A DNA stretch of 64,000 nt from Eubacteriales bacterium (GTDB lineage Bacteria > Bacillota > Clostridia > Oscillospirales > CAG-272), in the NCBI GenBank assembly GCA_045632705.1, contig JAZQXE010000103.1:381-64380 (forward strand). The letters run 5' to 3'. A program made the translations under genes and the position numbers. The notes beneath the pieces were generated by a model. The model was not told the origin of the DNA. It saw only the letters and a list, made by a program, of their open reading frames with translations, and searched no databases. Of the stretch, positions 28,839 to 46,982 are shown in pieces (positions within the stretch are counted from its first letter, which is position 1; the number at the start of each line of letters is the position of its first letter).

Positions 28839-31800
28839 ATGTCAATAGCAGATATCAAAGCGTTGAGCGACGAAAAGCGCACGAAAGATACCCTTGCAAA
28901 AACGAACCGAGAAAGTGCCGCGACGTTGACTCCCAACGCATCGGCACTTTATCGGGCAAAGGAAAATAAGCTTGAAAGGCTCGGCAAAACGAAAGCAGGA
29001 ACACCCGTTATCAGCGGGCTTGATTCTTATTATAAGCAGTACAGCGACGCCGTAAAGACGGAGAAGGATGCGGATTCTCTCTACTCACGCCTTTCGGGAC
29101 TTTCCGCAAGTAACGAATATCTGAAAAAGGACGTTGAAGGGATGCGCTCAAAATACGGAGACGAGTGGGCGGACGCCCAGCTCTCCAATCTTTCGAGCAT
29201 AAAAAGATCTATAAAGGACGCCGAGTTTTCACGTCTTGTAGGTGAGTACGAGAAGGCGGTAGAATACAACGCCTCACTTTACGACGGAGACGTATATAAC
29301 GAAAATAACGCATACTCCCTCGAAAAGCTGAAGGCAGATGCGGAGGCGTTTGGCAGAAATGCGCACGAGTGGTACGACTACGTAGAGTCACGCCGCACGG
29401 AGAAGGGGGACGAGTGGGCGGATAGTGCGAGAGCCTTTATTGACCGGGCGGGCAAGTTTTACGGCAGCGCGTGGAAGAATTACGCCTCACTGATGGACGG
29501 CGCTCAGACTCTGACTGCGGGCGGGGCGTACGAGAGTGACGCCGAGAGATACGCCGCACAAAACAAAGCGTATCGTGACGCTCTCTACTCGTCAAAATAT
29601 AAGGACCACACCTACGACGAGCTGATGTCGGCAAAGAGCGACCTTTTTAGAAACGAGAAGAAAAACGACACGAGCACTCCGCTCCCCTACGAGATATACA
29701 ACACGACCGCAAAGGGCGATTCGGTTTCCTCTCTTTTGAAAACGAACGCAAAACCGAAGCTTGATCTTTCTGCCCGCGTCGGCATATCGGACGAGGAAGC
29801 AAAGCGGGAGCTTGACTGGATAAACGAGCATAAAAGCGATATCACGTATCTGCTCGGAGCGGACGACGAGACGATCGACCGAGTCAGACGCGGTATGGAA
29901 GCAGAAAACGAAACGCTCAAAAACGAGCGCAACCGACTCGCCTCAGAAATACGCGGCATAAAGGATCCGACCGAGTCGGAGCGCGAGAAGATAAAAGAGT
30001 ATGAAAAGCGGATAAAGGAGATAGACGACAGGGTAGAATACGGTATTCTCGGCTATACCGACGACGGTATCGCCGTTACCTTTGACAATATCAAGGCAAT
30101 AAACAGGGCAGACACGACACTCGCGGACATTGAACGCTCCGAGGAGCAAAAAAGAGCCTTTGAAAAGGCTCAGATGCGCAATAACGAGCTTGAAATGATA
30201 AACGAAATTGCGAGAGTCACCTCCGAGCCTACTTTTATCGTAAAAAACAACGAAAAGAAAAAGAAGCTCGACGAAACCGAGCTTGACGTGGGAGAAGACG
30301 AAGTGCAGTTTTATTCTTCCTTTGCGTCAGCCGAGAGTGCGTTTGACTTGCTTACTCCCGAGCAAAAGGATCTGTGTGAATATATTTCAAAAACATACGG
30401 TATACACATCGTAAACGGCGGACGATTTGACGTAGCGGAGCTGGAGCGTGCGCGCCGACGTCTCTTTGAAGAGAAAAACGCGGCGGTCAGCCGCTTTGAA
30501 GCGTACGGATACGACTTTGGTGAGCTTGATTATTATCTCGATCTCAAGGAGGATATCAAGGAAAGTGCCAAAAGAGCCGAGGAGGATGCCGCGTGGGCAA
30601 AGGAGCACCCCGTACTGTCTACGATATCCACGCTATATAGAGCCCCTCTGACCGTTTTTGACTATGCGGATAATCTCATAGATTCCTCAAAGGGAATCGG
30701 CCGCGAAAACTCCATATACGGTGTATCGAATGTATACGACGATAATTTCATTAACAGAAACAATACCTATCTCGGAGCGGTGAGCGAGTCGATATACGAT
30801 AGCGTAAAGGACACGACGGACAGTACCACTCTTGCCTGGCTTGCGAGCACGGCATATTCGGGAGTTACCTCCGCTACGCAATCGGCTATGACCACCGCCG
30901 TATGTGTCACTTTGTTCGGGCCTGCTCTCGGCTCAAAGGTAGCACTCGGCGTTATGGGCGCGGAGGCGGCATCTTCGAGCTACAACAACGCGGTGAAAAA
31001 CGGTTCTTCAAACCTCGAGGCTCTGCTCACGAGTATGGCGGCAGGCACGGCTGAGGTCCTCTTTGAAAAGCTCCCGATGGACAACCTTATAAAGCTCGGA
31101 CGAGGAATGAACGCAAGCGAAATGTCTGGACTGCTCAAAAAGGCACTGTATGCGTCAAGCGGTGCGTTCAAGCAGGCTCTGACGGAGGCTGGCGAGGAGT
31201 TCGGTACGGAAATAGTAAATCTGCTTGCAGACGAGCTGATAAACGGTGACCACAGCTCTTACGCAAACAACGTTAAAAAGCTTATGACTGACGGCTACAC
31301 CTACGACGAAGCACGGCAAAAGGCAAGCGAGGAGGTCGTGCTCGGAGTGCTGTCCTCCGCTATAGGCGGATTTATAGGAGGTGCTTCGTCGGGTAGCGTC
31401 GGAAGCATCGTCGGTTTATCACAACTTCTATCCGATAATAGCTCGGAGAGAGATATGCTCGACACTCTTACCTCGCGTGAGTTTGCCGAGGCGGAGAGCG
31501 AGAGCTTTGAATTGCTGCGCGAGCTTGCCGCATCGGACAAAAAAGTCGCGGGCGTTACTCTCGCAGGATACGTTGATGAATATTCGGCTCTTCGCGATGA
31601 GGTGACAGACACAGGGCTGAAAGATGCAATAAGCGAAAAAATATCCGCGCTTTCGGAATTTGCACTTGAAAACGGAATCCCGCTTGCTACCCAAACAAAA
31701 AATATTAAAACGACGGCAGATATCTCGCCAAACGTACCGATAGACGCATTTTTAGACGGTGCTACTCTTCATACCAAGCAAAAGGGCGGCAAAAAAACAA

Positions 31801-34800
31801 CTGCACTCCGCCGAGCGTATTCGCTGGTGAGTGCAGTTCCGGAGTCAGTAGACGGAATATTGTCTCTGTTTGAAAGAACGGGTGCTAACGTAAAGAATAT
31901 AATAGAGGATCAGACTTCTTGGTATTTGCAGAGCTATACAAAACACATTTCTCAGACGGAATTTGCCAACATCGACTCAACTCTCGGTTATCATTACGCG
32001 CAAGAAAAGGCACGCGGAATAGTGACGGATGAGTATGTGCGGACGCAGGTAGCCGCGCAGTATCTTGCCTCTGTTATCGCAAAAGGAGGCTTTAGCAAGA
32101 GTGCATTTGACATCAGCGCATCAGATCCGATGACCGTACAGCGCCTTGTCAATATCGCAAGCGGTGCATACCACAAGAGCGCGGCAAAGTCACTTGTCCG
32201 CCGTGCGAACAGACTATCCGAAATAGAAACGGTAGCCGGTAAAATAACTGAAATGATGACTGAGGCAGAAAGATATGAGGCACTAAAAAACAGAAAACTA
32301 CAGGTGGCTCAAGTCAATCAAGAAAACGCAATCAAGATAGCAGAGACTTCTCCTGAGCTGATTGATAAAACGTTGAAGAAATCAAACGCTCTGCGGTTGA
32401 TAAAACGTCTCGGAGAGGAGTTCGGTGTATTTAAACAATATCAAAATTCAGATATTGACATAAAATTTGAATTTGGTAAAAATAATTTAGCAGAGAGTTT
32501 AACAAAGCAAAAAGGTAACTATGACCTGTATGCGCACATGCTATCTTGTTTTGATGAGGTAGTAGAGAACGCTATCGGAATTGAGGTGCATAACAGAAAC
32601 CAAGACGGATATATACCTGATCCGACACTAAACAAGGTTTATGTTTTGTGTAGTGCATTTGAAAATGAAGACGGTATTATTCCGTGCAAGCTGTCTGTTA
32701 AAGAATTTAATGACAAAACAAACCGACTGTATGTCGCGGTAGCGCTGGAAAGCATAAAAAAAGACAGGGTCGTTAGTATGGGTGTCCCGAATACTCGGTC
32801 TCACGTCCGTACCTCGCCTGTCACTATCAGTATACGCGATTTGTTTGCAAATGTCAATAGCAGGGATGTTGATTTTCTTAAATACATCCCGGATAAGTTT
32901 TTGAGTGAGGAGCAGATAGCTGCAAAAAGTGAGCAAAAAAACAACAGCAACACCTCCTACAACACAAAAACCTCAAAATCGCATACGTCTGCGAATTTGA
33001 ATGGCCGCATTACGATAGACGGGGAAGTGTCAAAAACGAAGAATAATTTTAAAGGATCTCTGCCAGACGAGAGAATATTTATCGATGAAAACTTAAAAAA
33101 ATCGTTTAGAGGCGTTGCCGAAGATGGAAGAAAGATATATGAATCCAATTTTCCCTTTATGTTAAAAGCTTATACGGATAAGCAAAAAGAAAATTGGGTG
33201 GGCAGTAAACGGATAGTACTCTATGAAAACGAAAAACAGTTCAGAGAGTTTATCAATGAGTCATTGAATAACAAACAGTACAATAAAAAAATGTATTTTG
33301 GCGCCGTTAGCTCCGAGCTTGCAGAATTAATACGAAATAAAACGGGAATTGAAGCAGAAGGATACAACGTATCGTTGTCTTCAAATGAGATACGTAAAAT
33401 AATAAAAGATCACGGTGATGAAAACAAAGAATTGCCGAGAGGGCAGAGAGCTGTTACGGCAGATGATTTTTTGAATATTCCTAAAGTAATACAATCACCT
33501 GATGAAATAAGGAAAGGACAAAAAGATTACGATGGAAAACCTGTAATCTTGTTTGATAAAGTTTTCAAAGGTCAATTTACTGTTGTTGCAGTAGTATCGG
33601 ATAAACATTTAGATATCAGAGTGCAAACTTCCTATATAGGCATAAAAAAAGGAAACCTTGCCACGCCGGTAGATGCAAGCTCCCCTGCCTTTACGTCCGA
33701 AACGAGTCGTGGTACAGTTTCCGATATAATAATACCACATTTACAGGGAAAAGTCAATATCAATGTAAAAGAGAAGTCAAACGGTGATTATGTATATAGA
33801 TTTAATGCAGAGAAAAAGTCCTCCACCCGACGGACTTTACATGCCGGCGTAAGCACCGTTAAAGGTGCCAATGGAGAACTGTTTCTTGACAACAATATAT
33901 CACAAGATACTTTTGTTGTCAATAGTAATGATATGCAAAATAAAGAAAAATATACAGAAAAAATCAGCGGTCAAAGTGTAATCTCCGAAAACGGACATGG
34001 AACACCCTATCAAACCGCTGACGGTAGTAGTGTAACACATCCCGGCGAAAAAGTCAACACAAAAACCTCAAAATCGCATACGTCTGCGAATTTGAATGGC
34101 CGCATTACGATAGACGGGGAAGTGTCAAAGCTGACGGACGTTCAACTCGACTCTATCGACGGTATCGGTGTACTTGCAAGGGCGCTCGGTCTGAACGTGC
34201 ATATCTACAACAGCTCCGTAATTGACGGCGAGAGATACATAGTAAATTCGGATGGGGAGGTCATCAAAAGTCCAAATGGCTGGTATGACACAAATGACGG
34301 CAGCATACACATCGACGTCAACGCAGGCGGCAGGGGTACGATGCTCTTTACGATGTCTCACGAGCTTACTCATTTTATACGCGATTGGTCAAGACAAAAG
34401 TATGAAAAGCTCGAGCGCTACGTTCGTGCTTTCCACGAGGAAGACGGCAGAAGTATAGATGAGCTGAAAAACGAGCAGATAGAGCTCGCCCGACAAAACG
34501 GTATTGCTATCACCGACGACGTTGCAATGGAAGAGGTAGTAGCAACTACACTCGAGGGTATGCTCTCTGACGGCTCTATTATCGAGCACGTTGCCAACAT
34601 CCGCAAGATAGATACTACCCTCGGTGATAAGATCAAGAGCAAGATCTCCGAGTTGATACGTAAGATAAAGGACGCCTATGCACGTATTCCCGCACGGACA
34701 AGTAACAGCACGTTTCTCTCCGAGACTGAGGAAGCTCTTGCGGAACTTCAGGCACTCTTTGAGGATGCACTTCTCAACGCGAGTGACAACTATACCCGCG

Positions 34801-37800
34801 CGGAAAATAAAAAAGCCTCGGGAGAGGGCAAAAGATACAGCATCAAATATCCGAAATATTCCAAAGCAGAAATCGAGTCCAATATAAAACAACTTTCGAA
34901 AATGTCATCTGTTTATGATGTTTCTGCAGAAAAGCTGAAGAAAACAGGCGTGTCGCCGAAAGAGCAATTCAGACAATATTTCAAGTCATTAAATGAAAAT
35001 ATCTACACAGAAGAGTTTGGAGATGTTTCGCTGCGGAATTCAAGCGTAAAATCGGAAATCAGACACGGTATTACTGCCGAAAAAACAGCTTCCATTGAGG
35101 CTATCCCGGCAGTTTTGGAAAAAGGAAAAGTGGTTTTCTCAAAGTCCAAAGAAACCGACACCGAAAGAATTGTCGTCGCTGCTCCGATAAAGATCGGTGA
35201 CACTACTTATTTTATGGGTGTGATGCTCCAAAGAAACTCACAGAATCAGCGCTTGTATTTGCATAACGTTGTGATAGAAAAAGAGACTTCGTTTCCTTCG
35301 CAAACTGACAGTCTTACGAACTGGGCTCTTGAAGAAAATGAAAGTCTCTATATGACAAGTATACTACAAAACGTATTACGTGTCAAGAATCAGTATATGC
35401 AAAACAGCGGAAATTATACCCGCGCGGAAAATAAAAAAGCCTCCGGAGATGGAGGAGTAATATATGATGTCGGATATACTACTGACAACAAACCCGTAGC
35501 ATTGAACATAAAAAAGGTGGATATGCGTTCACCGTCCAATAGCAATAATGCCAAGAACAGCAGCAACATATCCACCAACAACAATGTATCACAAGATACT
35601 TCTGTTGTCAATAGTAATTATATGAAAAACGGCGGCAACTATACCCGCGCGAAAAACATAAAAGCCTCCGGAGAGGAGACGGATAAGAAAAAGTACGATC
35701 TTGACGAGAGCTTAGGTATACAGTTGTATGATTGGCTTTATGGGCAAGGTAAAAAGTATGGAAGTTACAACGGAGAGTTTTTTAAGTTAGGAACAACACC
35801 TACAATATTCACAAAGCATGGTGCTCCTTCTGTTGAATTGATAATGTATGATGACGTTATCACTAAAGTTACAGGTGGAAAACATAACATTTCTTTGGAT
35901 GAAATTGCAAAGCTGCCATCCCAATTAAACGATCCTATTTTGCTGTTTTCAGGAAGTGTGCCGAATAGTTTTGTTGCACTTACAGAGCTTGTGGATAAGC
36001 TGGGGAATGATGTTATTGTAGCTGTTCATATCAATAAACATTATTCAAGAAATGTTGTAAACAAGATTGCAAGTTTATACAGTAAGTCCGATAACAATGG
36101 GAACAACCGTATAATTGACTATATAAAGCGGCAGATCAACGAGCAAAACTTGATAGATGCAAGCAATAATAAAGCATCCAATTGGTTTACGACCAGAGGG
36201 CTCCAATTGCCCAAGGTGGTTCAAACCATATTGGATGCTAACAAAAGGATATCACAAAAAGATCCTGTTGTCAATATTGATGATATGCAATACGGTGATG
36301 ACTATACACAGAAAGAAAAACAAAAAGCCTCGGGAGAGGACAAAAGATACAGCATCAAATATCCGAAATATTCCAAAGCAGATATCGAGTCCAATATAAA
36401 AGAATTGGCAAAGATGGCAAGCGTTTATAACGTTTCGGCGGAAAAACTAAAGAAAACGGGCAAACGCCCACGTGAAATGTACGAAGAGTTCTTTGCATTG
36501 AATAATAACAATATCTATGTGGAAGAGTTCGGAGATATTGAACTGTCAAAAGCGAGTGTCAGAGAAGAAATCAGACACGGCGTTCCCCCCGAAAAAATAG
36601 CGTCCATTGAGGCGATCCCGGCGGTACTCAAAAACGGAAAGGTAGTTTTTTTCAAAAACAAAGAAACAGACACCGAAAGAATTGTCGTTTGTGCTCCTGT
36701 TACGATCGGAAATACTCCATATTTTATGGGAGTTATGCTCCAAAGAAACTCACAAAACAAACGGTTATATTTGCACAATGTTGTGATAGAAAAAGAGACC
36801 TCGCTTTCTTCGCAAACTGACCTGGTTACGACAGGGGCTCTTGAAGAAAACGAAAGTCTCTCTATGACAAGTATACTACAAAACGCATTACTTGTCAAGA
36901 ATCAGTATAATGTTGTGATAGAAAAAGAGGCATCGAGTTCTTCACAAGCTGACAGTCTTACGAACTGGGCCCTTGAAGAAAACGATACCCTCTTTATAAC
37001 AAGTATACTACAAAAAGTATTACATGTCAAGAATCAGTATATGCAAAACGGCGGCAACTACACCCGCGCAGAAAAGAAAAGATCCTCCACAGAGGGAGGA
37101 GTAATATATGATGTCGGATATACTACTGACAACAAACCCGTAGCATTGAACATAAAAAAGGTGGATATGCATATGCCGTCCAATAGCAATAATGCCAAGA
37201 ACAGCAGCGACATATCCACCAACAACAATATATCACAAGATACTTCTGTTGTCAATAGTAAGTATATGAAAAACGGCGGCAACTATACCCGCGGAGAAAA
37301 GAAAAAAGTCTCCGAAGAGGAGACTAAAGCAAGTGCAGCAAACAGTTCAGGGGAAACGGGAGTAGGCATATTATCTCAGAGCTTTATAGATAAGACTCTC
37401 CGGAGCTTTGCAATAAAATCTCCCGGAGATTTTATACACGTGCAGAGGCAGGTTTTCGGCACTCTTGTGGACGAGGGCTTTTTCACCGATGAAGAAGCTC
37501 GCAGCAGAACGGACGTTAACGAAGAGACGGGAATGGAGATAGAGACAAACAAGAGCGGTATCTATGAGACGTTTGATCGTGATAATTACGGTATACGTGG
37601 CAGAAATATCAAGTTTATCAAACTTGCAACTGTAAGACAACTTCCCGAAATAATCAAAAACGGAACTCTTATAGAGGACAATGTTTTAAATTCTCACAAC
37701 AATTCGAGTAATGTTTCTTTCTCATACATAGAGCACGAGATAGATGTTGACGGTACTCCTGTCACTATAAAAGTGTCGGTAAAAAAAACGCCTCAAAAAA

Positions 37801-40800
37801 ACAAACTGTGGGTACATTCCGTGTATACAGAAAAAATCAGCGGTCCAGATGCAATTTCCAAAAACGGAAATGAGGCACCCTATCAAACCGCTGATGGTAG
37901 TAGTGTAACATATCCCGGAGAAAAAGTCAACACAAAAAACAAAAATTCGCATGCGTCTGTGACTTTGAGAGCGGATGAGGTATACAAGCAGAGGACGGAT
38001 CTTGCTGTCGGTGACAAAGTTGGCGCGGTGACACTTGTAGCGGACCTCGATACGGGCAAGCCGGTAACACCGAAACTCCGTGTGGAATTTGACCGTGAGG
38101 ATATGTCGTCGTACATTCTTGCCACAATTGAGTCGTTAGGGGACAAGGAGCTTGTCGGGGCGTTTGAGGACGAACTGGCGATACTGTTGATGGACTCGGA
38201 TGCGGACCTGCCTATGCTTGACGCTGTGGACATTCTCTCCGAGTACGTCAGAGACGGTAGTATCACACCCGAACAGGCGGCGCAGATACTGTCAAAAGAG
38301 CTCTCCGACCCCACAGGCGCCGATATCCCTACCCTCGTCGAGAGGGCGACATACGGCGACGGGGTGGGAGATTCGCTGGGTTCAAGTGCATATTCCTATG
38401 ATGCTTTGACAAAAAAGCAAGATGTTTCGGTCACAATGCTTCCATATGACATACCACGAACTGCTGAAGGAAAGATTGATAGAAAAACTATTATATCACT
38501 TGGGCGATTCAACGCTCGAAGCCAAAATAATGAAAGAAACACACCAACGGAGACTTACGTATATGTACCTGATATTGATGTTGATGTGCTTATTCGCAAA
38601 GACGGTCTTGAGCATGGATTGTCAAGGGATGATGATACGGCGCTTGCCACTATAAAAATCGGAGATTTGCTAAAAAACAGCATAGCAGTAAATGAACTGA
38701 ATGGAAGAACAAACGGGAAACGTTCAACCGATATGGCGTATGTATTGCTTTCTATTGGAGAAAACAAAAATAGTCCGTACCTTGTCAGAACTATTGTTGA
38801 CAAGACTACGAACGCTGTTATGGAAATAAGTACTTACGGGCTATATGCAATTAAGGCAAAAAAAGAAGGAGCGCTTTTTATGCCCGAAGGCAACGAGGCT
38901 GTTGGCGATAATCGCTCATATCCTTTCTTACGCTCCACTATAAGTATAGCGGATCTTTTAGAAAGTGTCAAGAACGAACCTATTGCAAACGAAATATTCT
39001 CGAATGATGTTCTCGAAAAAATTGGTGCAACCCGCACCGAAGGTACACTATCTCCCGATATCCGCTACTCGTTTGCGGAGCCCAACGGTGGCGACGGCGT
39101 GAAGTATTCGCTTGAAAATTCAAAAATCGTTCGCAATATGCCATCTTCAAAACGCTATCAAATACTCTCTAAAAAATACTTTACTGAAATTCCGTCCGTT
39201 GCAAAGTTATCTACCGGTATTTTGGAAAAAGTAAAAGATATTTCTTCGTGGGAGGATATAAATGCCTTCCAAGGTAAAGAAAAAAGAGAATTGATAATGA
39301 AAATAGCCGATGAGTTTGGAGTATTCAAAACATTAAAAAATACTGATATTGAACTGCACTTTGAGTTTTCTAAAAACAATTACAGAGAGAGCTTCAATAA
39401 GCAGAAACGACAATACGAACATTTTGCAAAAATGTTTTCTGTGTTTGATAAGGTAATAGCTCAAGCAATAGGCATAGAGGTTCACAATAAAAATGATATC
39501 GGCTACAAACCGGACCCGACGTTAGAAAATGTGTATGTTCTTCTAAGTGCATTTGAAGATGGCGATTACATCGTCCCTGTAAAGCTTGAGATAAAGGAGT
39601 TCAAGGATAAAGAGAACAAGCTTTATGTTGCCATTGCTTTGGATAAAATAAAAAAGACAGGGGTCTCGGAGCAAGGGACTACCGAAAACGGCGTTGCCCA
39701 AGACTCTCGCCCTGTCAAAATAACTATAACAGATCTAATGCAAAAAGTCAACCCGCACCAGCTTGAGATAAAGGAGTTCAACGATAAAGAAAACAAGCTT
39801 TATGTTGCCAATGCTTTGGATAAAATAAAAAAGACAGGGGTCTGGAAGCAAGGGACTACCGAAAACGGCGTTGCCCAAGACTCTCGCCCTGTCAAAATAA
39901 TTATAACAGATCTAATGAAAAAAGTCAATCCGCTCCAGACCTCGTTTACAAAATATTTTCCCAATGAAGTCCTCACAAACGAGCAAAAGCAAGTTTTGAT
40001 TGAACAGGGGATCTATAATAGTGATACCGGTATCCCCCGCTCCATCTCAGAGCCCGACGGTGGCGACGGTGTGAGGTATTCGCTTGGAGATACATCAATA
40101 GATATAAAAGATATATCTACGTATATAACAAAAAAAGAAAGCAATACAGTTACGCAAGCGCTTGATGTTAATACCTCAAGCAGTACGTCCGAAACGGAAC
40201 TTGCTTCTCCTGATATTGCTTCCGGCAAAAGAGTATCACAAAGTGAGACTGATGTCAATAGCCATTATATGCGAAATCACAAGAGGTATTCCCTTGAGGA
40301 GTATAACAAACCTATCACGGCAGCCGATGTTGATGTTTTGAAAAGTATTGACAAAATAAACGGTAAACCCAAAAGCGTCAGTCAATTTACGAGTGAAGAT
40401 ATAGAAAAGACTCAAAAATGGGCATATAAATTCTATAAGGAGATCGGAACAAAATCACCGTTTTTCCGTGCTTGGTTTGGCGATTGGAGAGAATATGACA
40501 GTTCAAAAACAACCATAGTATCTACCGAAGGAGCGTTGAGAGGAAACACCAGAAACGAAGATACGGATTGGAATATTATTATCTCGCGTCAAGTCCACAA
40601 AGAAACGACACACCATTCAAGTGAAAAAGTAAAAACAGCTGTAAGGTATTTACCATATATAGAGCAAATTACTAAAAACGCAGTTTTGTTAGATTCCTAC
40701 ATATCAGAAAAAGACAACAATTTATCTGCCATGTTTCATTCGTTTTATGCATATACCGAGATGTTTGGTTATCCTGCTTTGCTGAAATTGCAGGTCGAAG

Positions 40801-43800
40801 AATTGATAAATGAAAAAACAGGGAACGCGCTATCGAGGGATTACATTCTTCAAAACATAAAAGAAGAGCCGATCTCCAAGAGTAGACGCTTTTCAAAGGC
40901 GCATCACTCGGAAACTGACTCTTCTACTATTAGTGTATCCGATTTATTTGAACTTGTCAAGGAGAACGACAAAGATTTTCATTACCGGCCTGTAGATCCT
41001 GTGCTACTAAACAGTGACGGCACACCGAAGGTCTTCTATCACGGAGCTACGGAGGATCTTACCGCGTTTGACTCTGATCAGATCGCGTCAGACGAGGGCT
41101 CATTCTTGTTTTTCGAAAACAGAGAGGAAGCTCAAGCGTACGGAGAAAATGTTTTTGAAGTTTATCTCCAAGGAAGAAAGCTCGCCGACTACGATGATCA
41201 GCCGAGCGAATTTTACCGCTTGAATGATAAGCACTCGCAGGCCGAGTACCTAAAAGACAAGGGATATGACGGATGGTATAGAGATATGGATAGTGACGGA
41301 TGGGGTGAAGTGTCTGTTTTCTCCCCCGGACAGATAAAGTCTGCTGCCGAATTTGTTGACATTCTATATGAACTCGGTTATACTGAAAGTGAAATAGAAA
41401 ACTATAAGAAAAGAGTAGGTATAACAAATGACGAACAACGAAATGTATCTGAATTTGATAGATCAGTGGCTATTAGGCATGATAGCAGAGGACGACGAGG
41501 AACTGCGACGTCTGGACTGCCTAACAACTCACGGGGACAGGCACGCGGAGTATCAGGGAGACAAGAGCCGCTGGGTAGATCTGACACCGGAACAGAGAGA
41601 ACAGGCATACGAAAATATGATCTGGGAATAAGCTCCTCCCTCGCAGAGCCCGACGGTGGCGGTGTGGTTGAGTATTCAAACGAGGACGTAGATGTTAACA
41701 CGAACGACAAAAGTCTTTATAATAAAAACAAAGACGGAGGAATAACAAATGGCAGTCAAGACCCCGAAAGAGTGGCAGGAAGAGCGCTTTCAACCGCTCG
41801 TAGAAGCAACGACGTTTTACGGGAACAAAGTAATGATTCCGCAGGGTTATCAGTGCGCATGGGAGATGGCGGAATTGGAAGTGAAATTCTTGATGTCGAA
41901 AGGCAAGGATCCTCTGGAAGGCACGGAGAACCGGGGCGGAAGACGGTACAATCCTTATCTGGTGTACATGGAAGCGTACGAAGAACCGAATTGAACGGAT
42001 ATAACAAAGACGGAGGAATAACAAATGGCAGTCAAGACTCCGAAAGAGTGGCAGGAAGAGCGCTTTCAACCGCTCGTAGAAGCAACGACGTTTTACGGAA
42101 ACAAAGTAATGATTCCGGAAAAATGTCTGTTCGCGTGGGAAATAGCAGAAGCGGAAACCAAGGAGATGTTGTCGAAAGGTATGGATCCAGTGGATGGCTT
42201 GGAAGGTCACAGGGGCTTGCGAATAGTTCCATACAAAGTTTACTTGGAGATATTCGAGTAAAAGAGCTATCATTGATAGACAGTATAGGTCGTAGCGCAG
42301 GGGATGAGTCGGAGAACGCAGATGCGAAAACTCGTAAAAGGAAAGCGGACAACAAAGTATCGAGAGTCTACTCCCATACCGTTGCCGCGCTCTACGCGCA
42401 AGCCGAAAAGGATAACGTCGCGGAGCTTGAGGATTCTATATACTCTTACAACGTTTTGCACGAGAGAGATAGTATAAGAGCGGCAAAAACGAGGCTCGAG
42501 TCTCGGTACGAGTATGAAAAAGAGTATTTGTCACAGAAGGAATACTGGTCGGGAGAGGACCTCGACGTTGCTATGGGCATCGAGACAAGGGAGCGTCAGG
42601 CTGCAATTGAGAGCGGAGACTATAAGGAAGCTGCAAAATGGATAAAACTCATCCAGGAGCACGGAACGAGCGCGGGTAAATTCATCCAGAGCTTTGCAAA
42701 GTACACGCGCACTCCCTCGGGTATAGTTGCTCGTATCATCAACAAGCTAAAGACGGTCGAGGGGTACACGGACGACGATATTGCTCGAATATTGCCAAAG
42801 CTCACGCAATCTGCCGCCCTTCTTGAGAGCGTCAGCTATGGGGACGTTGAGGGCATAAAAAACACTATCCGTGAATTTGCAAAGACAAGAAACACCAAGA
42901 TAGGTGATAAACACTTCTATACGCGATTATCCCAGGCGCTTGACGAGGTAAATGATTTTGAATTTTTAAACAAGCTCGCCACCGCTCAGCTTGAGAATAT
43001 GGCTACAGACAACATGGAGCCGAGTGTGTTTAAAAAGTTAAGTTCATTTCAGACTATGGCACAGCTGTTGACGCTAAAGACTTACGAGAGAAACGTAGTG
43101 TCGAATGCGGCAATGGAGGTTATGGAGGCACTCGCCACGAATAATCTCGGATACGTTGTTGACCGCGTGATAGGTACCTTTACAAAGGTAAATACGGTAG
43201 GTCTTCAGAGTACGAGATGGAAAAAGACGGCACGAGCAGCCGCCGCAGAGGGAAGATACCGCGCTACACTTGAGGTAGGACTTGATGCGAGAGTCAGAGA
43301 TTCCTACGACGATATAGTCGGCGGCGGGGAGCGCAACCGAAAGAAAACGAACGAAAAGTATTACAATACCTATAAAAGAACGTGGAGCGCCGCAAGCGGT
43401 AATCCTCTCATACGCGGACTTTCTACGGCAGAAAAACTGCTTGGATATTCGCTTAACGTAACCGATGCAAAGCATAAGGCGGGAGTAGAGAAAGAGGTCT
43501 ACGACAGCTTGAGCTTTGCCGTTGAAAAGGGCTATATCAGCGACTCGGAGGCGAGGCGCATCGCAAAGTCGGAGGCGGAGTACAGAGCTTTTCAAAACTC
43601 CAACGTCGTAAGCGATATGCTCTACGATCTCAAACAAAGTGCAAACAGGATAGGTACAAAGGACTTCGGACTTGGAGATCTGGTGCAGAAATATACGCAG
43701 GTGCCGGGTGCGCTCATATCCAGAGTCATTGAATATTCACCCGTCGGGTACGCGAAAGCCGTATATAACTTTATAGAGCTATGCAGGGCGGGGGCGAATG

Positions 43801-45413
43801 TCGATACGATGAGTGCTAAAAAGAGAGAGGCACTATTTTCGGCACAGAGGAACTTTGCGCTTCAGTTTGCGAGAAGCACTACGGGAACGGCTCTGATCGC
43901 CGTGTGCGCCGCGCTCGCGCGTCTTGGACTGTTTGGATATTCCGATGACGACGAGGACGATGACAGAGCGGCGTTTGAGAGAGATCAGGGACTTGACGGA
44001 TTGCAGGTGAACTTCTCCGCGTTTGGCAGATTTCTTCTCGGAGACGACTCGTCCTGGCGCGAGGGAGATATGCTCGTAGACCTGGGATTTCTCGAGCCGC
44101 TTGACGCTATTGCTTCTATCGGAGTTGCGCTTGATAATACCGCGCAAAAGGAAGGACTTTCCCTTGGCGGATATATCGGAGAGGGAATTGAGGAGACCCT
44201 CGATGCACTCGTGCGGTCAATTTCTGACATTCCCACTATGCAGACGATATCGAGCGTGTACGATTCGTGGAAGTATTCGGATGCCGACAACGTCGGAGGA
44301 AAAATAATTGACTGTGCCGTTACCTTTGCGGCTTCCTCGGTGACGGGATTGATGCCGAATATCGTTTCGCAGTTTGCGAATGCTGCAGACTCATATTACA
44401 GAGATACGTACGCGGATAACGAGACCGAGACTCTCTTGCGCAAGATAGCATACAAGATACCGGGTATTCGAAATCTTTTGCCAAAATCTCAAAACGCGTG
44501 GGGAGAAGAGCGTGAGTACACAAACTCCGTAGCTCACGCGATAGGCGCGGTGTTGTTCCCGGGCAACGTAAATGAGCTCAAAACCGACGACGTAGAAGCG
44601 GAAATAAACCGCCTAGCAGATCTTGCTTATCAAACGGACGGCGTTGATATCATCCCGGACAGAAGCGTCCGCTCTGCCTTAACTATCGCGGGATGCGAAT
44701 ATACTCTCTCCGAGAGGGATAAGGTAGAGTTTGCGGCTATGAGAGGTCAGGTAGCGTATGCTCTTTACGCCGAGATAATAACCTCGGAAATTTACAAAGC
44801 CGTCTCGGACAGTGAAAGAGTACTGATGCTCGACCTGGCAAAAGAGTATGCAAATTACGTTGCAACGAAAAACTACGCCGAGAAAAACGGTATAGACTAT
44901 AAAAATTCCGCAAAAGAGAAGATAGAAAACAGACTTTCATCGGGTGCGGTAGACAACTTTGCGATAGAAGCGTACAAAAACCTGATACAAGGCGACGGGG
45001 AAGCGCAGAGCATCAGCAGTATAGTCAACGACACAGCGCTTGACAACAACGTAAAATTACAGCTCATCTACGCTTTGACGACTACCTACGACAAGGATAC
45101 GGGCAACGTTGACAGAGAAAAATACGATAATATAGTAAACGCCTGCAATGCGGGCGCGCCGTTGACTCTCGTATCAAAGTTTCTCAACTACTGCGACTCG
45201 ATACAGAGCTCGGTCGACCAGAGCGGCCGTACGGTATATACCGATATTGACGGTGTTAGCGCAAGGCGCAAAACGGAGCTTTGCGAGCGGTGGCTCGAAA
45301 CGACGAGAATGGACGTTGACGAGCGCGGTAACTTTGTCAGAGTGACAGACGAGATCAGATACTACCTGTATGCGCTCCAATATCCGAGCGAGCGCACAAA
45401 TCCCTTCAGATGA
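28839..45413 (+). CDS. giant 5,524-aa modular polyvalent-type protein (candidate packaged/ejected effector polyprotein)
   Basis: A single uninterrupted ORF with SD aaaggagcgg. The N-terminal ~900 aa are coiled-coil plus Gly/Ala-rich hydrophobic segments. The centre is a mosaic of repeated modules including an HEXXH peptidase, a PBECR-like module and an ART-like module. The C-terminal ~1,050 aa contain hydrophobic segments (TALIAVCAALARLGLF). Confidence 0.85.
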   Translation: MSIADIKALSDEKRTKDTLAKTNRESAATLTPNASALYRAKENKLERLGKTKAGTPVISGLDSYYKQYSDAVKTEKDADSLYSRLSGLSASNEYLKKDVEGMRSKYGDEWADAQLSNLSSIKRSIKDAEFSRLVGEYEKAVEYNASLYDGDVYNENNAYSLEKLKADAEAFGRNAHEWYDYVESRRTEKGDEWADSARAFIDRAGKFYGSAWKNYASLMDGAQTLTAGGAYESDAERYAAQNKAYRDALYSSKYKDHTYDELMSAKSDLFRNEKKNDTSTPLPYEIYNTTAKGDSVSSLLKTNAKPKLDLSARVGISDEEAKRELDWINEHKSDITYLLGADDETIDRVRRGMEAENETLKNERNRLASEIRGIKDPTESEREKIKEYEKRIKEIDDRVEYGILGYTDDGIAVTFDNIKAINRADTTLADIERSEEQKRAFEKAQMRNNELEMINEIARVTSEPTFIVKNNEKKKKLDETELDVGEDEVQFYSSFASAESAFDLLTPEQKDLCEYISKTYGIHIVNGGRFDVAELERARRRLFEEKNAAVSRFEAYGYDFGELDYYLDLKEDIKESAKRAEEDAAWAKEHPVLSTISTLYRAPLTVFDYADNLIDSSKGIGRENSIYGVSNVYDDNFINRNNTYLGAVSESIYDSVKDTTDSTTLAWLASTAYSGVTSATQSAMTTAVCVTLFGPALGSKVALGVMGAEAASSSYNNAVKNGSSNLEALLTSMAAGTAEVLFEKLPMDNLIKLGRGMNASEMSGLLKKALYASSGAFKQALTEAGEEFGTEIVNLLADELINGDHSSYANNVKKLMTDGYTYDEARQKASEEVVLGVLSSAIGGFIGGASSGSVGSIVGLSQLLSDNSSERDMLDTLTSREFAEAESESFELLRELAASDKKVAGVTLAGYVDEYSALRDEVTDTGLKDAISEKISALSEFALENGIPLATQTKNIKTTADISPNVPIDAFLDGATLHTKQKGGKKTTALRRAYSLVSAVPESVDGILSLFERTGANVKNIIEDQTSWYLQSYTKHISQTEFANIDSTLGYHYAQEKARGIVTDEYVRTQVAAQYLASVIAKGGFSKSAFDISASDPMTVQRLVNIASGAYHKSAAKSLVRRANRLSEIETVAGKITEMMTEAERYEALKNRKLQVAQVNQENAIKIAETSPELIDKTLKKSNALRLIKRLGEEFGVFKQYQNSDIDIKFEFGKNNLAESLTKQKGNYDLYAHMLSCFDEVVENAIGIEVHNRNQDGYIPDPTLNKVYVLCSAFENEDGIIPCKLSVKEFNDKTNRLYVAVALESIKKDRVVSMGVPNTRSHVRTSPVTISIRDLFANVNSRDVDFLKYIPDKFLSEEQIAAKSEQKNNSNTSYNTKTSKSHTSANLNGRITIDGEVSKTKNNFKGSLPDERIFIDENLKKSFRGVAEDGRKIYESNFPFMLKAYTDKQKENWVGSKRIVLYENEKQFREFINESLNNKQYNKKMYFGAVSSELAELIRNKTGIEAEGYNVSLSSNEIRKIIKDHGDENKELPRGQRAVTADDFLNIPKVIQSPDEIRKGQKDYDGKPVILFDKVFKGQFTVVAVVSDKHLDIRVQTSYIGIKKGNLATPVDASSPAFTSETSRGTVSDIIIPHLQGKVNINVKEKSNGDYVYRFNAEKKSSTRRTLHAGVSTVKGANGELFLDNNISQDTFVVNSNDMQNKEKYTEKISGQSVISENGHGTPYQTADGSSVTHPGEKVNTKTSKSHTSANLNGRITIDGEVSKLTDVQLDSIDGIGVLARALGLNVHIYNSSVIDGERYIVNSDGEVIKSPNGWYDTNDGSIHIDVNAGGRGTMLFTMSHELTHFIRDWSRQKYEKLERYVRAFHEEDGRSIDELKNEQIELARQNGIAITDDVAMEEVVATTLEGMLSDGSIIEHVANIRKIDTTLGDKIKSKISELIRKIKDAYARIPARTSNSTFLSETEEALAELQALFEDALLNASDNYTRAENKKASGEGKRYSIKYPKYSKAEIESNIKQLSKMSSVYDVSAEKLKKTGVSPKEQFRQYFKSLNENIYTEEFGDVSLRNSSVKSEIRHGITAEKTASIEAIPAVLEKGKVVFSKSKETDTERIVVAAPIKIGDTTYFMGVMLQRNSQNQRLYLHNVVIEKETSFPSQTDSLTNWALEENESLYMTSILQNVLRVKNQYMQNSGNYTRAENKKASGDGGVIYDVGYTTDNKPVALNIKKVDMRSPSNSNNAKNSSNISTNNNVSQDTSVVNSNYMKNGGNYTRAKNIKASGEETDKKKYDLDESLGIQLYDWLYGQGKKYGSYNGEFFKLGTTPTIFTKHGAPSVELIMYDDVITKVTGGKHNISLDEIAKLPSQLNDPILLFSGSVPNSFVALTELVDKLGNDVIVAVHINKHYSRNVVNKIASLYSKSDNNGNNRIIDYIKRQINEQNLIDASNNKASNWFTTRGLQLPKVVQTILDANKRISQKDPVVNIDDMQYGDDYTQKEKQKASGEDKRYSIKYPKYSKADIESNIKELAKMASVYNVSAEKLKKTGKRPREMYEEFFALNNNNIYVEEFGDIELSKASVREEIRHGVPPEKIASIEAIPAVLKNGKVVFFKNKETDTERIVVCAPVTIGNTPYFMGVMLQRNSQNKRLYLHNVVIEKETSLSSQTDLVTTGALEENESLSMTSILQNALLVKNQYNVVIEKEASSSSQADSLTNWALEENDTLFITSILQKVLHVKNQYMQNGGNYTRAEKKRSSTEGGVIYDVGYTTDNKPVALNIKKVDMHMPSNSNNAKNSSDISTNNNISQDTSVVNSKYMKNGGNYTRGEKKKVSEEETKASAANSSGETGVGILSQSFIDKTLRSFAIKSPGDFIHVQRQVFGTLVDEGFFTDEEARSRTDVNEETGMEIETNKSGIYETFDRDNYGIRGRNIKFIKLATVRQLPEIIKNGTLIEDNVLNSHNNSSNVSFSYIEHEIDVDGTPVTIKVSVKKTPQKNKLWVHSVYTEKISGPDAISKNGNEAPYQTADGSSVTYPGEKVNTKNKNSHASVTLRADEVYKQRTDLAVGDKVGAVTLVADLDTGKPVTPKLRVEFDREDMSSYILATIESLGDKELVGAFEDELAILLMDSDADLPMLDAVDILSEYVRDGSITPEQAAQILSKELSDPTGADIPTLVERATYGDGVGDSLGSSAYSYDALTKKQDVSVTMLPYDIPRTAEGKIDRKTIISLGRFNARSQNNERNTPTETYVYVPDIDVDVLIRKDGLEHGLSRDDDTALATIKIGDLLKNSIAVNELNGRTNGKRSTDMAYVLLSIGENKNSPYLVRTIVDKTTNAVMEISTYGLYAIKAKKEGALFMPEGNEAVGDNRSYPFLRSTISIADLLESVKNEPIANEIFSNDVLEKIGATRTEGTLSPDIRYSFAEPNGGDGVKYSLENSKIVRNMPSSKRYQILSKKYFTEIPSVAKLSTGILEKVKDISSWEDINAFQGKEKRELIMKIADEFGVFKTLKNTDIELHFEFSKNNYRESFNKQKRQYEHFAKMFSVFDKVIAQAIGIEVHNKNDIGYKPDPTLENVYVLLSAFEDGDYIVPVKLEIKEFKDKENKLYVAIALDKIKKTGVSEQGTTENGVAQDSRPVKITITDLMQKVNPHQLEIKEFNDKENKLYVANALDKIKKTGVWKQGTTENGVAQDSRPVKIIITDLMKKVNPLQTSFTKYFPNEVLTNEQKQVLIEQGIYNSDTGIPRSISEPDGGDGVRYSLGDTSIDIKDISTYITKKESNTVTQALDVNTSSSTSETELASPDIASGKRVSQSETDVNSHYMRNHKRYSLEEYNKPITAADVDVLKSIDKINGKPKSVSQFTSEDIEKTQKWAYKFYKEIGTKSPFFRAWFGDWREYDSSKTTIVSTEGALRGNTRNEDTDWNIIISRQVHKETTHHSSEKVKTAVRYLPYIEQITKNAVLLDSYISEKDNNLSAMFHSFYAYTEMFGYPALLKLQVEELINEKTGNALSRDYILQNIKEEPISKSRRFSKAHHSETDSSTISVSDLFELVKENDKDFHYRPVDPVLLNSDGTPKVFYHGATEDLTAFDSDQIASDEGSFLFFENREEAQAYGENVFEVYLQGRKLADYDDQPSEFYRLNDKHSQAEYLKDKGYDGWYRDMDSDGWGEVSVFSPGQIKSAAEFVDILYELGYTESEIENYKKRVGITNDEQRNVSEFDRSVAIRHDSRGRRGTATSGLPNNSRGQARGVSGRQEPLGRSDTGTERTGIRKYDLGISSSLAEPDGGGVVEYSNEDVDVNTNDKSLYNKNKDGGITNGSQDPERVAGRALSTARRSNDVLREQSNDSAGLSVRMGDGGIGSEILDVERQGSSGRHGEPGRKTVQSLSGVHGSVRRTELNGYNKDGGITNGSQDSERVAGRALSTARRSNDVLRKQSNDSGKMSVRVGNSRSGNQGDVVERYGSSGWLGRSQGLANSSIQSLLGDIRVKELSLIDSIGRSAGDESENADAKTRKRKADNKVSRVYSHTVAALYAQAEKDNVAELEDSIYSYNVLHERDSIRAAKTRLESRYEYEKEYLSQKEYWSGEDLDVAMGIETRERQAAIESGDYKEAAKWIKLIQEHGTSAGKFIQSFAKYTRTPSGIVARIINKLKTVEGYTDDDIARILPKLTQSAALLESVSYGDVEGIKNTIREFAKTRNTKIGDKHFYTRLSQALDEVNDFEFLNKLATAQLENMATDNMEPSVFKKLSSFQTMAQLLTLKTYERNVVSNAAMEVMEALATNNLGYVVDRVIGTFTKVNTVGLQSTRWKKTARAAAAEGRYRATLEVGLDARVRDSYDDIVGGGERNRKKTNEKYYNTYKRTWSAASGNPLIRGLSTAEKLLGYSLNVTDAKHKAGVEKEVYDSLSFAVEKGYISDSEARRIAKSEAEYRAFQNSNVVSDMLYDLKQSANRIGTKDFGLGDLVQKYTQVPGALISRVIEYSPVGYAKAVYNFIELCRAGANVDTMSAKKREALFSAQRNFALQFARSTTGTALIAVCAALARLGLFGYSDDDEDDDRAAFERDQGLDGLQVNFSAFGRFLLGDDSSWREGDMLVDLGFLEPLDAIASIGVALDNTAQKEGLSLGGYIGEGIEETLDALVRSISDIPTMQTISSVYDSWKYSDADNVGGKIIDCAVTFAASSVTGLMPNIVSQFANAADSYYRDTYADNETETLLRKIAYKIPGIRNLLPKSQNAWGEEREYTNSVAHAIGAVLFPGNVNELKTDDVEAEINRLADLAYQTDGVDIIPDRSVRSALTIAGCEYTLSERDKVEFAAMRGQVAYALYAEIITSEIYKAVSDSERVLMLDLAKEYANYVATKNYAEKNGIDYKNSAKEKIENRLSSGAVDNFAIEAYKNLIQGDGEAQSISSIVNDTALDNNVKLQLIYALTTTYDKDTGNVDREKYDNIVNACNAGAPLTLVSKFLNYCDSIQSSVDQSGRTVYTDIDGVSARRKTELCERWLETTRMDVDERGNFVRVTDEIRYYLYALQYPSERTNPFR
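32960..33034 (+). repeat. 75-bp perfect direct repeat, copy 1 (encodes NTKTSKSHTSANLNGRITIDGEVSK)
   Basis: Identical to 34055-34129. The offset of 1,095 bp equals 365 codons. Confidence 0.9.
33207..33680 (+). other. module resembling phage Barnase-EndoU-ColicinE5/D-RelE-like (PBECR) nuclease domains of polyvalent proteins
   Basis: SSNEIRKIIKDHGDENKELPRGQRAVTADDFLNIPKVIQSPDEI ... FTVVAVVSDKHLDIRVQTSY. Called from recollection of the family pattern only. Confidence 0.35.
34055..34129 (+). repeat. 75-bp perfect direct repeat, copy 2
   Basis: Identical to 32960-33034. Confidence 0.9.
34131..34575 (+). other. zincin-like metallopeptidase module (HEXXH at 34359-34373)
   Basis: GGRGTMLFTMSHELTHFIRDW. 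The context resembles MPTase-PolyVal domains. Confidence 0.6.
39585..39938 (+). repeat. 177-bp (59-codon) tandem duplication, two near-identical copies
   Basis: The copies at 39585-39761 and 39762-39938 both encode LEIKEF(K/N)DKENKLYVA(I/N)ALDKIKKTGV...GTTENGVAQDSRPVKI.ITDLM.KVNP. Confidence 0.9.
40975..41345 (+). other. ADP-ribosyltransferase-like module (ART-PolyVal-like)
   Basis: LLNSDGTPKVFYHGATEDLTAFDSD...GSFLFFENREEAQAYGENVFEVYL matches the remembered pattern G.P.vvYHGT..f..Fd...g.fFt....A..Y....v..vyl. Not verified by search. Confidence 0.4.
41428..41631 (+). CDS. nested +1-frame ORF 1 (67 aa, acidic) inside the giant ORF
   Basis: GTAGGT-ATAACAA-ATG has the same spacer as the other two nested ORFs. 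The product MTNNEMYLNLIDQWLLGMIAEDDEELRRL...LTPEQREQAYENMIWE looks globular, while the giant-frame translation here is R/G/S-rich. Confidence 0.4.
   Translation: MTNNEMYLNLIDQWLLGMIAEDDEELRRLDCLTTHGDRHAEYQGDKSRWVDLTPEQREQAYENMIWE
41749..41994 (+). CDS. nested +1-frame ORF 2 (81 aa) inside the giant ORF
   Basis: Perfect SD GGAGGA lies 7 nt before the ATG. It is a paralog of 42025-42261, and the pair differ mainly by third-position-biased substitutions in this frame. Confidence 0.6.
   Translation: MAVKTPKEWQEERFQPLVEATTFYGNKVMIPQGYQCAWEMAELEVKFLMSKGKDPLEGTENRGGRRYNPYLVYMEAYEEPN
42025..42261 (+). CDS. nested +1-frame ORF 3 (78 aa) inside the giant ORF
   Basis: Same SD and first 31 codons as ORF 2. 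There are 16 synonymous-only codon differences from ORF 2 in this frame. Confidence 0.6.
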   Translation: MAVKTPKEWQEERFQPLVEATTFYGNKVMIPEKCLFAWEIAEAETKEMLSKGMDPVDGLEGHRGLRIVPYKVYLEIFE

Positions 45414-45942: not shown

Positions 45943-45968
45943 CAGATATCAAGTGCATCCTCATTCTT
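45943..45968. repeat. attR: element-side arm beginning CAGATATC (45943-45950) plus 6-bp core ATTCTT (45963-45968)
   Basis: Mirror image of attL. The joined element ends give CAGATATCAAGTGCATCCTCATTCTTTAGGACATACAAGATATCTG, with 15 of 23 arm positions symmetric by my count. Confidence 0.8.
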
Positions 45969-46158
45969 CAGTGCCTATGTCTGTTAAAATACCAACTACC
46001 TCGTTATACGGCATTGAGTACCTTTGTTGCAGATATCTCATAGAAGCACCAAGCTCACCGTCGGGGCCTCCTATCTGCGAGATGATTATTTGCGCGTACA
46101 GCGGATTGGGGTTCGTTATTTTTACGGGGTATTGCAGTTTCTTTTCGTATATCCACAT
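45961..46158 (-). pseudogene. cotJC: cotJC 5-prime portion (65 codons), terminated by an element-supplied TGA
   Basis: MWIYEKKLQYPVKITNPNPLYAQIIISQIGGPDGELGASMRYLQQRYSMPYNEVVGILTDIGTEE is colinear with the B. subtilis CotJC N-terminus MWVYEKKLQYPVKV...GGADGELAAALRYLNQRY...LLTDIGTEE. Confidence 0.9.
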
Positions 46159-46159
46159 A

Positions 46160-46764: not shown

Positions 46765-46982
46765 ATTTGATAACTCCGTTTCTTCTTTTTAGACGGATAT
46801 CGTTTCTCCGTCTGTTGTTAGTATATGAGGCGTTTTCGTTTGTTGATAAAAGCGAAGCGCAAAGAAAAAAACGGCACGGAAAAAACTCTCTTTTTTCCGT
46901 ACCGTCATTATTTACCTATGCCGTACATAAGTATTTATTGAGTTGCTTTAACTAAAATTTGTAAAAAAATCGGAGGCTGAAT

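Follow-up and report, generated by a model that had tools for sequence, protein, structure and literature searches.

The window, that is, the whole 64,000-nucleotide stretch of DNA analysed here (contig JAZQXE010000103.1 of an Eubacteriales bacterium), harbors a prophage of about 39 kb (9293-48300), and one giant gene accounts for about 43% of it. This gene is a single intact open reading frame (ORF) of 5,524 aa on the plus strand (28839-45413), uninterrupted for 16.6 kb and containing all repeats described below. Judged from its domains, the product belongs to the polyvalent proteins as defined by Iyer et al. (2017). As a whole, its organization is probably explained by linker-mediated cassette exchange in a polyvalent-protein cargo array. 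Conserved N- and C-terminal backbone domains flank a slot holding about a dozen modules, which would have been acquired horizontally. The peptides that join them, linkers and tails, are short and specific to the lineage and would be mostly unstructured. At the young segments among these, modules would have been duplicated, joined and swapped by homologous recombination, either as unequal exchange or as gene conversion, the partner being another copy in the same gene or a co-resident relative. The young segments may also be substrates for further in-frame loss or gain, the predicted units being the 365-codon PBECR3 cassette between two 75-mers and the 548-codon block between linkers Lk1 and Lk2. 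Recombination may still be ongoing in this lysogen.

Composition, modules and repeats of the giant gene

Segmentation by GC content at third codon positions (GC3) divided the gene into three blocks, aa 1-905 with a GC3 of 0.588, aa 906-4500 with 0.407, and aa 4501-5524 with 0.558. The difference between backbone (0.572) and cargo (0.407) is highly significant (p=1.4e-31). Other genes of the prophage range from 0.55 to 0.62 and host genes from 0.56 to 0.61, which the outer blocks match and the middle block does not. While the left change-point lies at aa 905, the right one (aa 4500) coincides with the start of C-terminal homology, located at aa 4501-4506 in most relatives. The cargo block is foreign in composition, and its modules appear to have been acquired horizontally. 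A zincin-like module with an HExxH motif is the only part of the cargo with native GC3 (0.56; p=3e-6 versus the remaining cargo), suggesting a long-resident occupant around which lower-GC foreign cassettes and linkers were inserted.

The protein was scanned with Pfam as a whole and module by module, using the gathering threshold as cut-off. PBECR3 (aa 1490-1601), MuF_C (aa 2347-2447), ART-PolyVal (about aa 4059-4170) and several LPD3 domains were detected above this threshold. The module-wise scan indicated at least six LPD3-type modules, designated A1, B1, B2, c, A2 and d, where A2 was assigned through its paralogy to A1 in protein self-comparison and not by its own scan. Together with the zincin-like module and module X, for which no family match was obtained, about 12 to 14 modules are present. 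Repeats were verified by repeat search, Tandem Repeats Finder (TRF), self-blastn, tiled self-blastp, and direct identity counts. The resulting map is as follows.

28839-31553, plus strand: N-terminal backbone, aa 1-905, delimited by GC3 segmentation, containing a hydrophobic stretch rich in Gly and Ala around aa 640-880
31554-42338, plus strand: cargo block, aa 906-4500, 10.8 kb, delimited by GC3, containing every module and every repeat
32241-32936, plus strand: A1, LPD3-like, old paralog of A2 with saturation at synonymous sites; homologs reach 67% identity
32960-33034, plus strand: linker L1a, sharp-edged, matching L1b at all 75 bp
33035-33887, plus strand: PBECR3 (predicted RNase) cassette; Pfam match at 33306-33641
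33889-34054, plus strand: SQDT-type linker (33889-33955), then tail T1, homologous to T2 at 37824
34055-34129, plus strand: L1b, second copy of the perfect 75-mer (repeat search, self-blastn)
34131-34784, plus strand: zincin-like module (HELTH...E), by its motif a candidate processing peptidase; GC3 0.56
34785-35264, plus strand: NYTR/KRYS linker, then LPD3 module B1; the core is an old paralog of B2, the 5' linker is young
35265-35680, plus strand: U1 (44-aa unit), then linker Lk1; 90% identical to U3 plus Lk2, with a 76-bp exact run at 35451
35682-36239, plus strand: MuF_C module; Pfam match at 35877-36179
36240-36776, plus strand: linker (SQKD/DYTQ/KRYS), then LPD3 module B2 (Pfam, self-comparison)
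36777-37324, plus strand: U2 and U3 (132-bp tandem), then linker Lk2 (repeat search, TRF)
37326-37823, plus strand: LPD3c module; Pfam match at 37506-37805
37824-37973, plus strand: tail T2 with a diverged L1-like end, L1c (repeat search, self-blastn)
37974-39053, plus strand: module X, no family matches; homologs in the polyvalent proteins P0033, P0041, P0051 and P0059
39055-40099, plus strand: EPxGG linker, LPD3-like module A2, second EPxGG linker; 177-bp tandem within A2 (39583-39938)
40225-41438, plus strand: SQSE linker, LPD3d and ART-PolyVal; Pfam ART match at about 41013-41348
41439-42270, plus strand: post-ART linker with a third EPDGG copy (41636-41677), then two 92-aa units
42339-45410, plus strand: C-terminal backbone domain, aa 4501-5524, GC3 0.558; a large unannotated family

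In the N-terminal backbone, aa 527-845 are homologous to the relatives P0067 and P0095, and a match to phrog_22978 was obtained. For the C-terminal backbone domain, there were no Pfam, informative PHROG or GenBank-phage matches. The post-ART linker is common to the window gene, P0051 and L018, a contig described below.

With BLAST E-values between 1e-7 and 1e-162, the repeats cannot be attributed to chance, and all seven of those originally listed were recovered. Most repeats of high identity are linkers and tails situated between modules. The 75-bp repeat (32960-33034 and 34055-34129) is 100% identical at an offset of 1,095 and brackets PBECR3, and in the 30 nt outside each edge identity amounts to only 20-33%. 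The repeat starting at 35451 and 37095 (offset 1,644) is 96% identical over 200 bp and forms part of a 418-bp repeat (35263-35680 and 36907-37324) of 90% identity. Between 34832-35285 and 36344-36797 (offset 1,512), identity is 86% in the initial 80 bp and 72% in the remainder; the full extent of this B1/B2 repeat is 34803-35397 and 36315-36909 with 79% identity. TRF detected 2.0 copies of the 177-bp (59-codon) tandem at 39583-39938, 95% identical, and the 276-bp (92-codon) tandem at 41727-42270 shows 74% identity overall and 85% across its first 196 bp. The 44-aa unit occurs in three copies starting at 35265, 36777 and 36909. The similarity between 32391-32775 and a region at about 39288 is real as well, but its offset is 6,894 and not 6,897. 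This A1/A2 repeat has 62-68% nucleotide identity and is evident at the protein level (aa 1135-1349 and 3429-3647, E=1e-46). Additional repeats include a 145-bp T tail (33951 and 37824, 86% identical), a six-copy family of 67-nt SQDT-type linkers, and a three-copy EPxGG linker (39055, 40027, 41636).

All off-diagonal blastn high-scoring segment pairs (19 of 19) have offsets that are multiples of three, as had been claimed, but this is no evidence of a mechanism. Repeats kept within one intact ORF must be in frame, so that codon-multiple spacing is uninformative, a matter of survivorship under selection for an intact ORF and not a design feature. Relatives with broken ORFs do show out-of-frame junctions or offsets, +1 in L018 and 298, 574 and 676 bp in another contig, L029.

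That repeats flank whole modules applies to most of them. The L1 pair encloses the PBECR3 cassette, the Lk pair encloses MuF_C, B2 and U2, and the pair 5' of the B modules encloses B1 through MuF_C. The A1/A2 and B1/B2 repeats, however, represent old paralogous domains, and the 177-bp tandem cuts a fold. In an AlphaFold model of the A2 region, the predicted local distance difference test (pLDDT) score is 80-92 across aa 3425-3605; the model shows the first copy of the 59-aa tandem as the last beta-hairpin of the A2 fold, whereas the second copy, with a pLDDT of about 40, remains outside the fold. Low complexity and richness in Gly, Ser and Arg characterize the 92-aa unit as a spacer. In the model of B1 with its linker (pLDDT 38), no structure was predicted in Lk1, which may be unstructured.

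Young linkers, old cores and exchange in relatives

A codon-aware Nei-Gojobori analysis of the repeat pairs revealed two classes of sequence. In the globular cores, for which A1/A2 and B1/B2 were pooled, the proportion of synonymous differences (pS) is 0.70, that is, saturated, with a synonymous divergence (dS) of about 2 and a ratio of nonsynonymous to synonymous divergence (dN/dS) of at most 0.2. For linkers and tails, comprising L1, T, the B 5' linker, U with Lk, and EPxGG, the pooled values are pS 0.155, dS 0.17 and dN/dS of about 0.7. The difference in synonymous change is pronounced (Fisher p=6e-28). The tandem duplications resemble the linkers, with dS values of 0.06 and 0.36 and dN close to dS; the 276-bp unit evolves neutrally with both values around 0.35. 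By these estimates, the cores are old paralogs under purifying selection, and the segments between and around them are young and almost neutral. Low dS combined with relaxed dN in the linkers indicates recent copying or homogenization at the DNA level, not peptide constraint.

The distribution of mismatches points in the same direction. At the divergence level of T1/T2, identity of L1 at 75 of 75 positions has a probability of about 1e-5; a third L1 copy, L1c, is only 51% identical. Exact runs longer than expected for scattered mismatches were found in B1/B2 (42 bp at 34829, p=1.5e-4), in Lk (76 bp, p=0.007), and in the 276-bp tandem (59 bp, p=5e-5).

Homology searches showed that the C-terminal backbone domain defines an unannotated and widespread family of phage proteins. 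It comprises 3,239 cluster representatives at E-values of 1e-3 or below, 617 of them at 1e-30 or below. The 150 best-scoring members are 646 to 4,450 aa long and those in genomic loci 1,185 to 3,677 aa; the window protein exceeds them all. Cargo differs among members and includes Zeta toxin with MuF_C, LPD3, PBECR3, or ART. In 80 polyvalent proteins sharing modules with the window gene (25-67% identity), module order is thoroughly shuffled. Variation of module content in homologs, which was part of the original prediction, is thus borne out, since both length and cargo differ widely.

Exchange of cargo could be followed in a sister lineage. Two genes, P0006 and P0007, share a stretch of 3,099 bp with 96.4% identity that begins exactly at the right linker (APIIADSSAGGNTQSAQ), and they have the left linker in common (107 bp, 89.7%). 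Between the linkers their cargo is non-homologous, with LPD3 in one and PBECR3 in the other, and in both genes it is lower in GC than the backbone. A third gene, P0110, contains the two cassettes one after the other, and the linker repeats on either side of each have 94-97% identity. The three genes represent the states 'A', 'B', and 'A-linker-B', as linker-mediated cassette exchange predicts.

Downstream of the called end of P0110, further direct repeats of 87-96% identity were noted in L029 (2831-4889; ENA ERZ24773466, coverage 2.9x). Their offsets, 298, 574 and 676 bp, are all 1 mod 3, and no long ORF is found there. This region could be a broken continuation of the giant gene or the result of indel errors at low coverage.

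The only close relative of the window cargo is L018, an 885-bp metagenome contig (ENA ERZ28633946 scaffold_114989). Its B core is nearer to B1 (83.0%) than to B2 (74.3%), and its U unit differs from window U3 at two of 132 nt and from U1 at 18 (p=1.7e-5). These values indicate phylogenetic incongruence exactly at the boundary between core and tail. Past the U unit, L018 jumps to the equivalent of window 41533-41653, so that about 6.1 kb of modules is absent. It was rejected as a clean repeat-mediated variant, because the junction is out of frame (+1), no repeat is shared there, and a premature stop is present, a TCA-to-TAA change upstream of the junction. L018 may be a decayed relative or a chimeric short-read contig.

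Another arrangement was noted in P0051, where PBECR3 is joined straight to module X via an L1-like linker (KSKTSKSQTSA; aa 417-761). In the window (33036-34130 and 37824-38500), PBECR3-T1-L1b is instead followed by the zincin-like module, and LPD3c-T2-L1c by X. This would be consistent with an ancestral order PBECR3-T-L1-X broken by exchange at T/L1. P0051 has internal repeats too, with 72% identity over 78 aa.

For the backbone, nothing close was found in GenBank phages, IMG/VR, one genome per GTDB species, or a collection of 5.8 billion proteins; the best match in these databases is 36-39% identical. No matches or relatives were obtained when the whole gene was compared with GenBank phages by megablast, when 50,697 GenBank phage records were searched with the C-terminal domain by tblastn, or when IMG/VR was scanned with the same domain. 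Exact-DNA scans of viral contigs for a 30-mer of L1 and a 45-mer of the U unit were also negative. Six matches to a B-core pattern in JGI metagenomes were all judged to be chance.

Weighing the explanations

Several points weigh against linker-mediated exchange as the explanation of the window gene. No length variant of this gene itself was found, in public data that hold no close match to its backbone, and the only close relative, L018, has the out-of-frame junction without shared repeat and the premature stop. Recombination between copies, adding or deleting modules as originally claimed, is supported as an evolutionary process by the young linkers, L018, and P0006/P0007, but not by variants of the gene. 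High-identity internal repeats are uncommon in the family, and the repeat-rich state may be transient. No phage recombinase was identified in the window, and the longest perfect tracts, 75-76 bp, are close to the minimum length at which RecA-type recombination is efficient in Firmicutes. The breakpoints of the 177-bp duplication are inside the modelled A2 fold, not at a module boundary. Finally, the structure model of B1 and its linker is of low confidence, the peptidase assignment is based on a motif, and dS values for individual linkers derive from few sites.

A stronger version of the same idea holds that the repeat architecture is an adaptively maintained shuffling system resembling a contingency locus, with linkers and spacing under selection for this purpose. 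It could be invoked since the identity of linker DNA, young or homogenized and nearly neutral, is not explained by protein constraint, since cassettes are swapped at linkers, and since the same architecture arose independently in P0110. It appears rather unlikely nevertheless. Internal repeats of at least 70% identity are present in none of 10 long homologs and in only three of 80 polyvalent relatives; at the DNA level, nine homologous genes are essentially free of repeats, the sole exception being one 50-bp pair in L005. Given this rarity in relatives, the repeat-rich state is not a conserved property of the family, and the built-in mechanism for shuffling that had been proposed is not supported. 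Moreover, in-frame spacing requires no special selection, one duplication cuts a fold, and beyond the integrase no dedicated recombinase was found.

The repeats could also be passive relics, decaying domain duplications in which linker similarity reflects functional constraint, such as protease sites or packaging signals, without any role in recombination. The presence of the HExxH module would fit, as would the enrichment of the motif [KR][YF]S[LIV], which opens many modules and indicates that some linker residues are functionally constrained. In the 80 relatives, 53 occurrences were observed compared with 10.3 +/- 3.1 in shuffled sequences, about 5-fold, and 21 compared with 0.7, about 30-fold, for an extended form. 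Constraint on a peptide lowers dN, however, not dS, and the linkers combine a dS of 0.17 with a dN/dS of about 0.7, the reverse of the cores. The 75-mer is sharp-edged without flanking homology, and the incongruence in L018 and the breakpoints in P0006/P0007 require exchange. Passive decay is therefore an improbable account.

An origin of repeats and tandems by misassembly is very unlikely. The relatives L018 and L029 are short or broken contigs, which might raise suspicion, and close relatives in public data generally are tiny or broken contigs only. On the other hand, the ORF is uninterrupted for 16.6 kb, the divergence of the cores is codon-structured, and, except for one 75-mer, copies differ by 5-38% and must be distinct loci, not duplicated reads. 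Perfect repeats are 76 bp at most, the longest being 75-76 bp; for the same reason, wholesale collapse of the gene in short-read assemblies, to which it had been thought prone, is not to be expected.

Least probable of all is the action of a diversity-generating retroelement or a site-specific shufflon or invertase on the repeats: a large serine recombinase is encoded at 9293-11050, but at the prophage end next to host genes, like an integrase, and there are no inverted repeats in the gene, no copies of it elsewhere in the window, no adenine-specific mismatch spectra, and no reverse transcriptase among the scanned ORFs.

Known systems and the prophage

In polyvalent proteins, a single polypeptide unites 2-15 domains that differ in biochemical activity (Iyer, Burroughs, Anand, de Souza, Aravind 2017; PMC5512222). 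The window protein shares this organization, the location of its gene beside portal and terminase genes, and the hallmark domains LPD3, PBECR3, ART-PolyVal and MuF_C above the Pfam gathering threshold. It may also share a zincin-like module, the candidate being the HExxH module recognized by its motif. It differs in being at the top of the reported size range (5,524 aa and about 12-14 modules versus 2-15 domains) and in that the cargo occupies a central slot, with a conserved backbone domain on its N-terminal and another on its C-terminal side. Mosaicism of polyvalent proteins is already known, including domain duplication and rearrangement in orthologs of Helicobacter jhp1044 (PMC5512222). 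A term search of that article did not reveal the nucleotide-level picture of young linkers, old cores, foreign GC and linker swaps, and the word 'linker' is absent from it.

MARTX toxins of Vibrio and relatives, whose effector repertoire differs between strains by recombination (PMC6315884, citing Kwak et al. 2011 PNAS, rtxA1), are the closest functional analogue. Both are giant proteins for delivery in which conserved arms at the N and C termini enclose a central effector array varying by recombination. In MARTX toxins, an internal protease cleaves the regions between effectors to free them (PMC6315884); similar processing may take place here. There is no sequence relationship, and the glycine-rich RTX repeats of the arms and the cysteine protease domain, activated by inositol hexakisphosphate (InsP6) in MARTX, were absent in Pfam scans of the whole protein, the candidate protease being metallopeptidase-like. 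In addition, MARTX toxins are delivered into eukaryotic cells by a type I secretion system, while delivery here would be by phage ejection into bacteria.

Cleavage of linkers by the embedded candidate HExxH peptidase is conceivable from this analogy to MARTX autoprocessing and from the proposal that a zincin-like metallopeptidase (MPTase) processes polyvalent polyproteins (PMC5512222). HExxH and a downstream Glu are invariant in an alignment of six homologs. The module could not be assigned to a recognized peptidase family, as no significant Pfam match and no PDB match was obtained; the weak Pfam match to M78 has an E-value of 0.068. SQDT-type linkers (SQDT..NYTR) were rejected as a family-wide motif, being present in three of 80 relatives, and only [KR][YF]S[LIV] is general.

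Polymorphic toxins, namely CdiA/Rhs and the MuF toxins of temperate phages (Jamet et al. 2017, PMC5576092), likewise exchange cassettes by homologous recombination at a conserved junction beside the variable domain, and the MuF toxins are also phage-borne with MuF-associated domains. They possess, however, a conserved N-terminal trafficking region, a single variable C-terminal domain and an adjacent immunity gene, whereas in the window protein the cargo is internal and multiple and conservation is found in the last 1,024 aa. No immunity gene was recognized downstream, where small ORFs directly after the giant gene (45953-46955) have no Pfam or PHROG matches. Immunity proteins often lack annotation. 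These ORFs could encode immunity or lysis proteins.

The most fitting description of the locus is that of a polyvalent protein, exceptionally expanded, on an uncharacterized backbone with a central cargo slot, one that would work much like MARTX and evolve much like polymorphic toxins. More speculatively, the backbone family could be the phage counterpart of MARTX, a chassis dedicated to ejection with a slot for cargo in its centre, its short lineage-specific linkers acting both as recombination adapters and as HExxH cleavage sites freeing effectors after injection, and the window gene the most expanded example known, in active expansion. Similarity of linkers at the DNA level would then let co-circulating phages gain, lose and swap cassettes in frame. 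We regard this extended scenario as possible but doubtful.

Polyvalent proteins are regarded as the earliest weapons that a phage or plasmid brings into a new host, and the assembly of their domain combinations has so far been described at the level of architecture only. The window locus and the series P0006, P0007 and P0110 offer a candidate mechanism at the nucleotide level, in which low-GC foreign cassettes would be combined through short, recyclable linkers, and defined in-frame deletions are predicted that can be tested by PCR. The unannotated family with its cargo slot could be mined for anti-defence or toxin domains or serve as a delivery chassis for engineered cargo. Such genes are probably under-represented in databases, since relatives fragment or break in short-read metagenome assemblies.

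The prophage was delimited by TerL, portal and head genes upstream of the giant gene, by integrase and Rep genes at the left, and by host metabolic genes starting at 48317. The following genes were assigned.

9293-11050, minus strand: serine integrase (large serine recombinase), at the prophage end next to host genes
14233-15039: Rep initiator, rolling-circle type (phrog_3584, PF23343)
16661-18196, plus strand: TerL, upstream of the giant gene
17968-20142, plus strand: portal, upstream of the giant gene
21421-22428, plus strand: major head protein, upstream of the giant gene
24230-25024, plus strand: M23/LysM peptidase, upstream of the giant gene
26077-27966, plus strand: internal virion protein homolog, upstream of the giant gene

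The giant gene is the final gene of the structural block. Its position at the end of the late operon is syntenic with that of a short homolog, and to judge from this position the protein is presumably a packaged component of the virion that enters the cell together with the DNA. The prophage (9293-48300) has no recognizable tail genes in the interval from the head genes to the giant gene. Replication apparently proceeds via the rolling-circle-type Rep initiator and integration via the large serine recombinase. The best matches of TerL, from Thermoanaerobacterium phage THSA-485A and Helicobacter pullorum prophages, are just 51% identical and restricted to the N-terminal half. As listed, the ORFs for TerL and portal overlap by 229 bp (17968-18196) in different frames, and the true portal start is probably located further downstream.

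At the border between prophage and host lies a gene (46983-48266) for a protein of 427 aa that contains Big_9, cadherin-like and SLH domains. This protein could be a receptor-binding or cell-wall-anchored protein of the phage, or the product of a host S-layer-associated gene. On the other side, a host protein of 1,535 aa with Listeria-Bacteroides repeat domains (PF09479) is specified at 863-5470 on the minus strand. Its neighbours code for an S26 signal peptidase and a Mn catalase, and this surface-protein locus flanks the integration site of the prophage.

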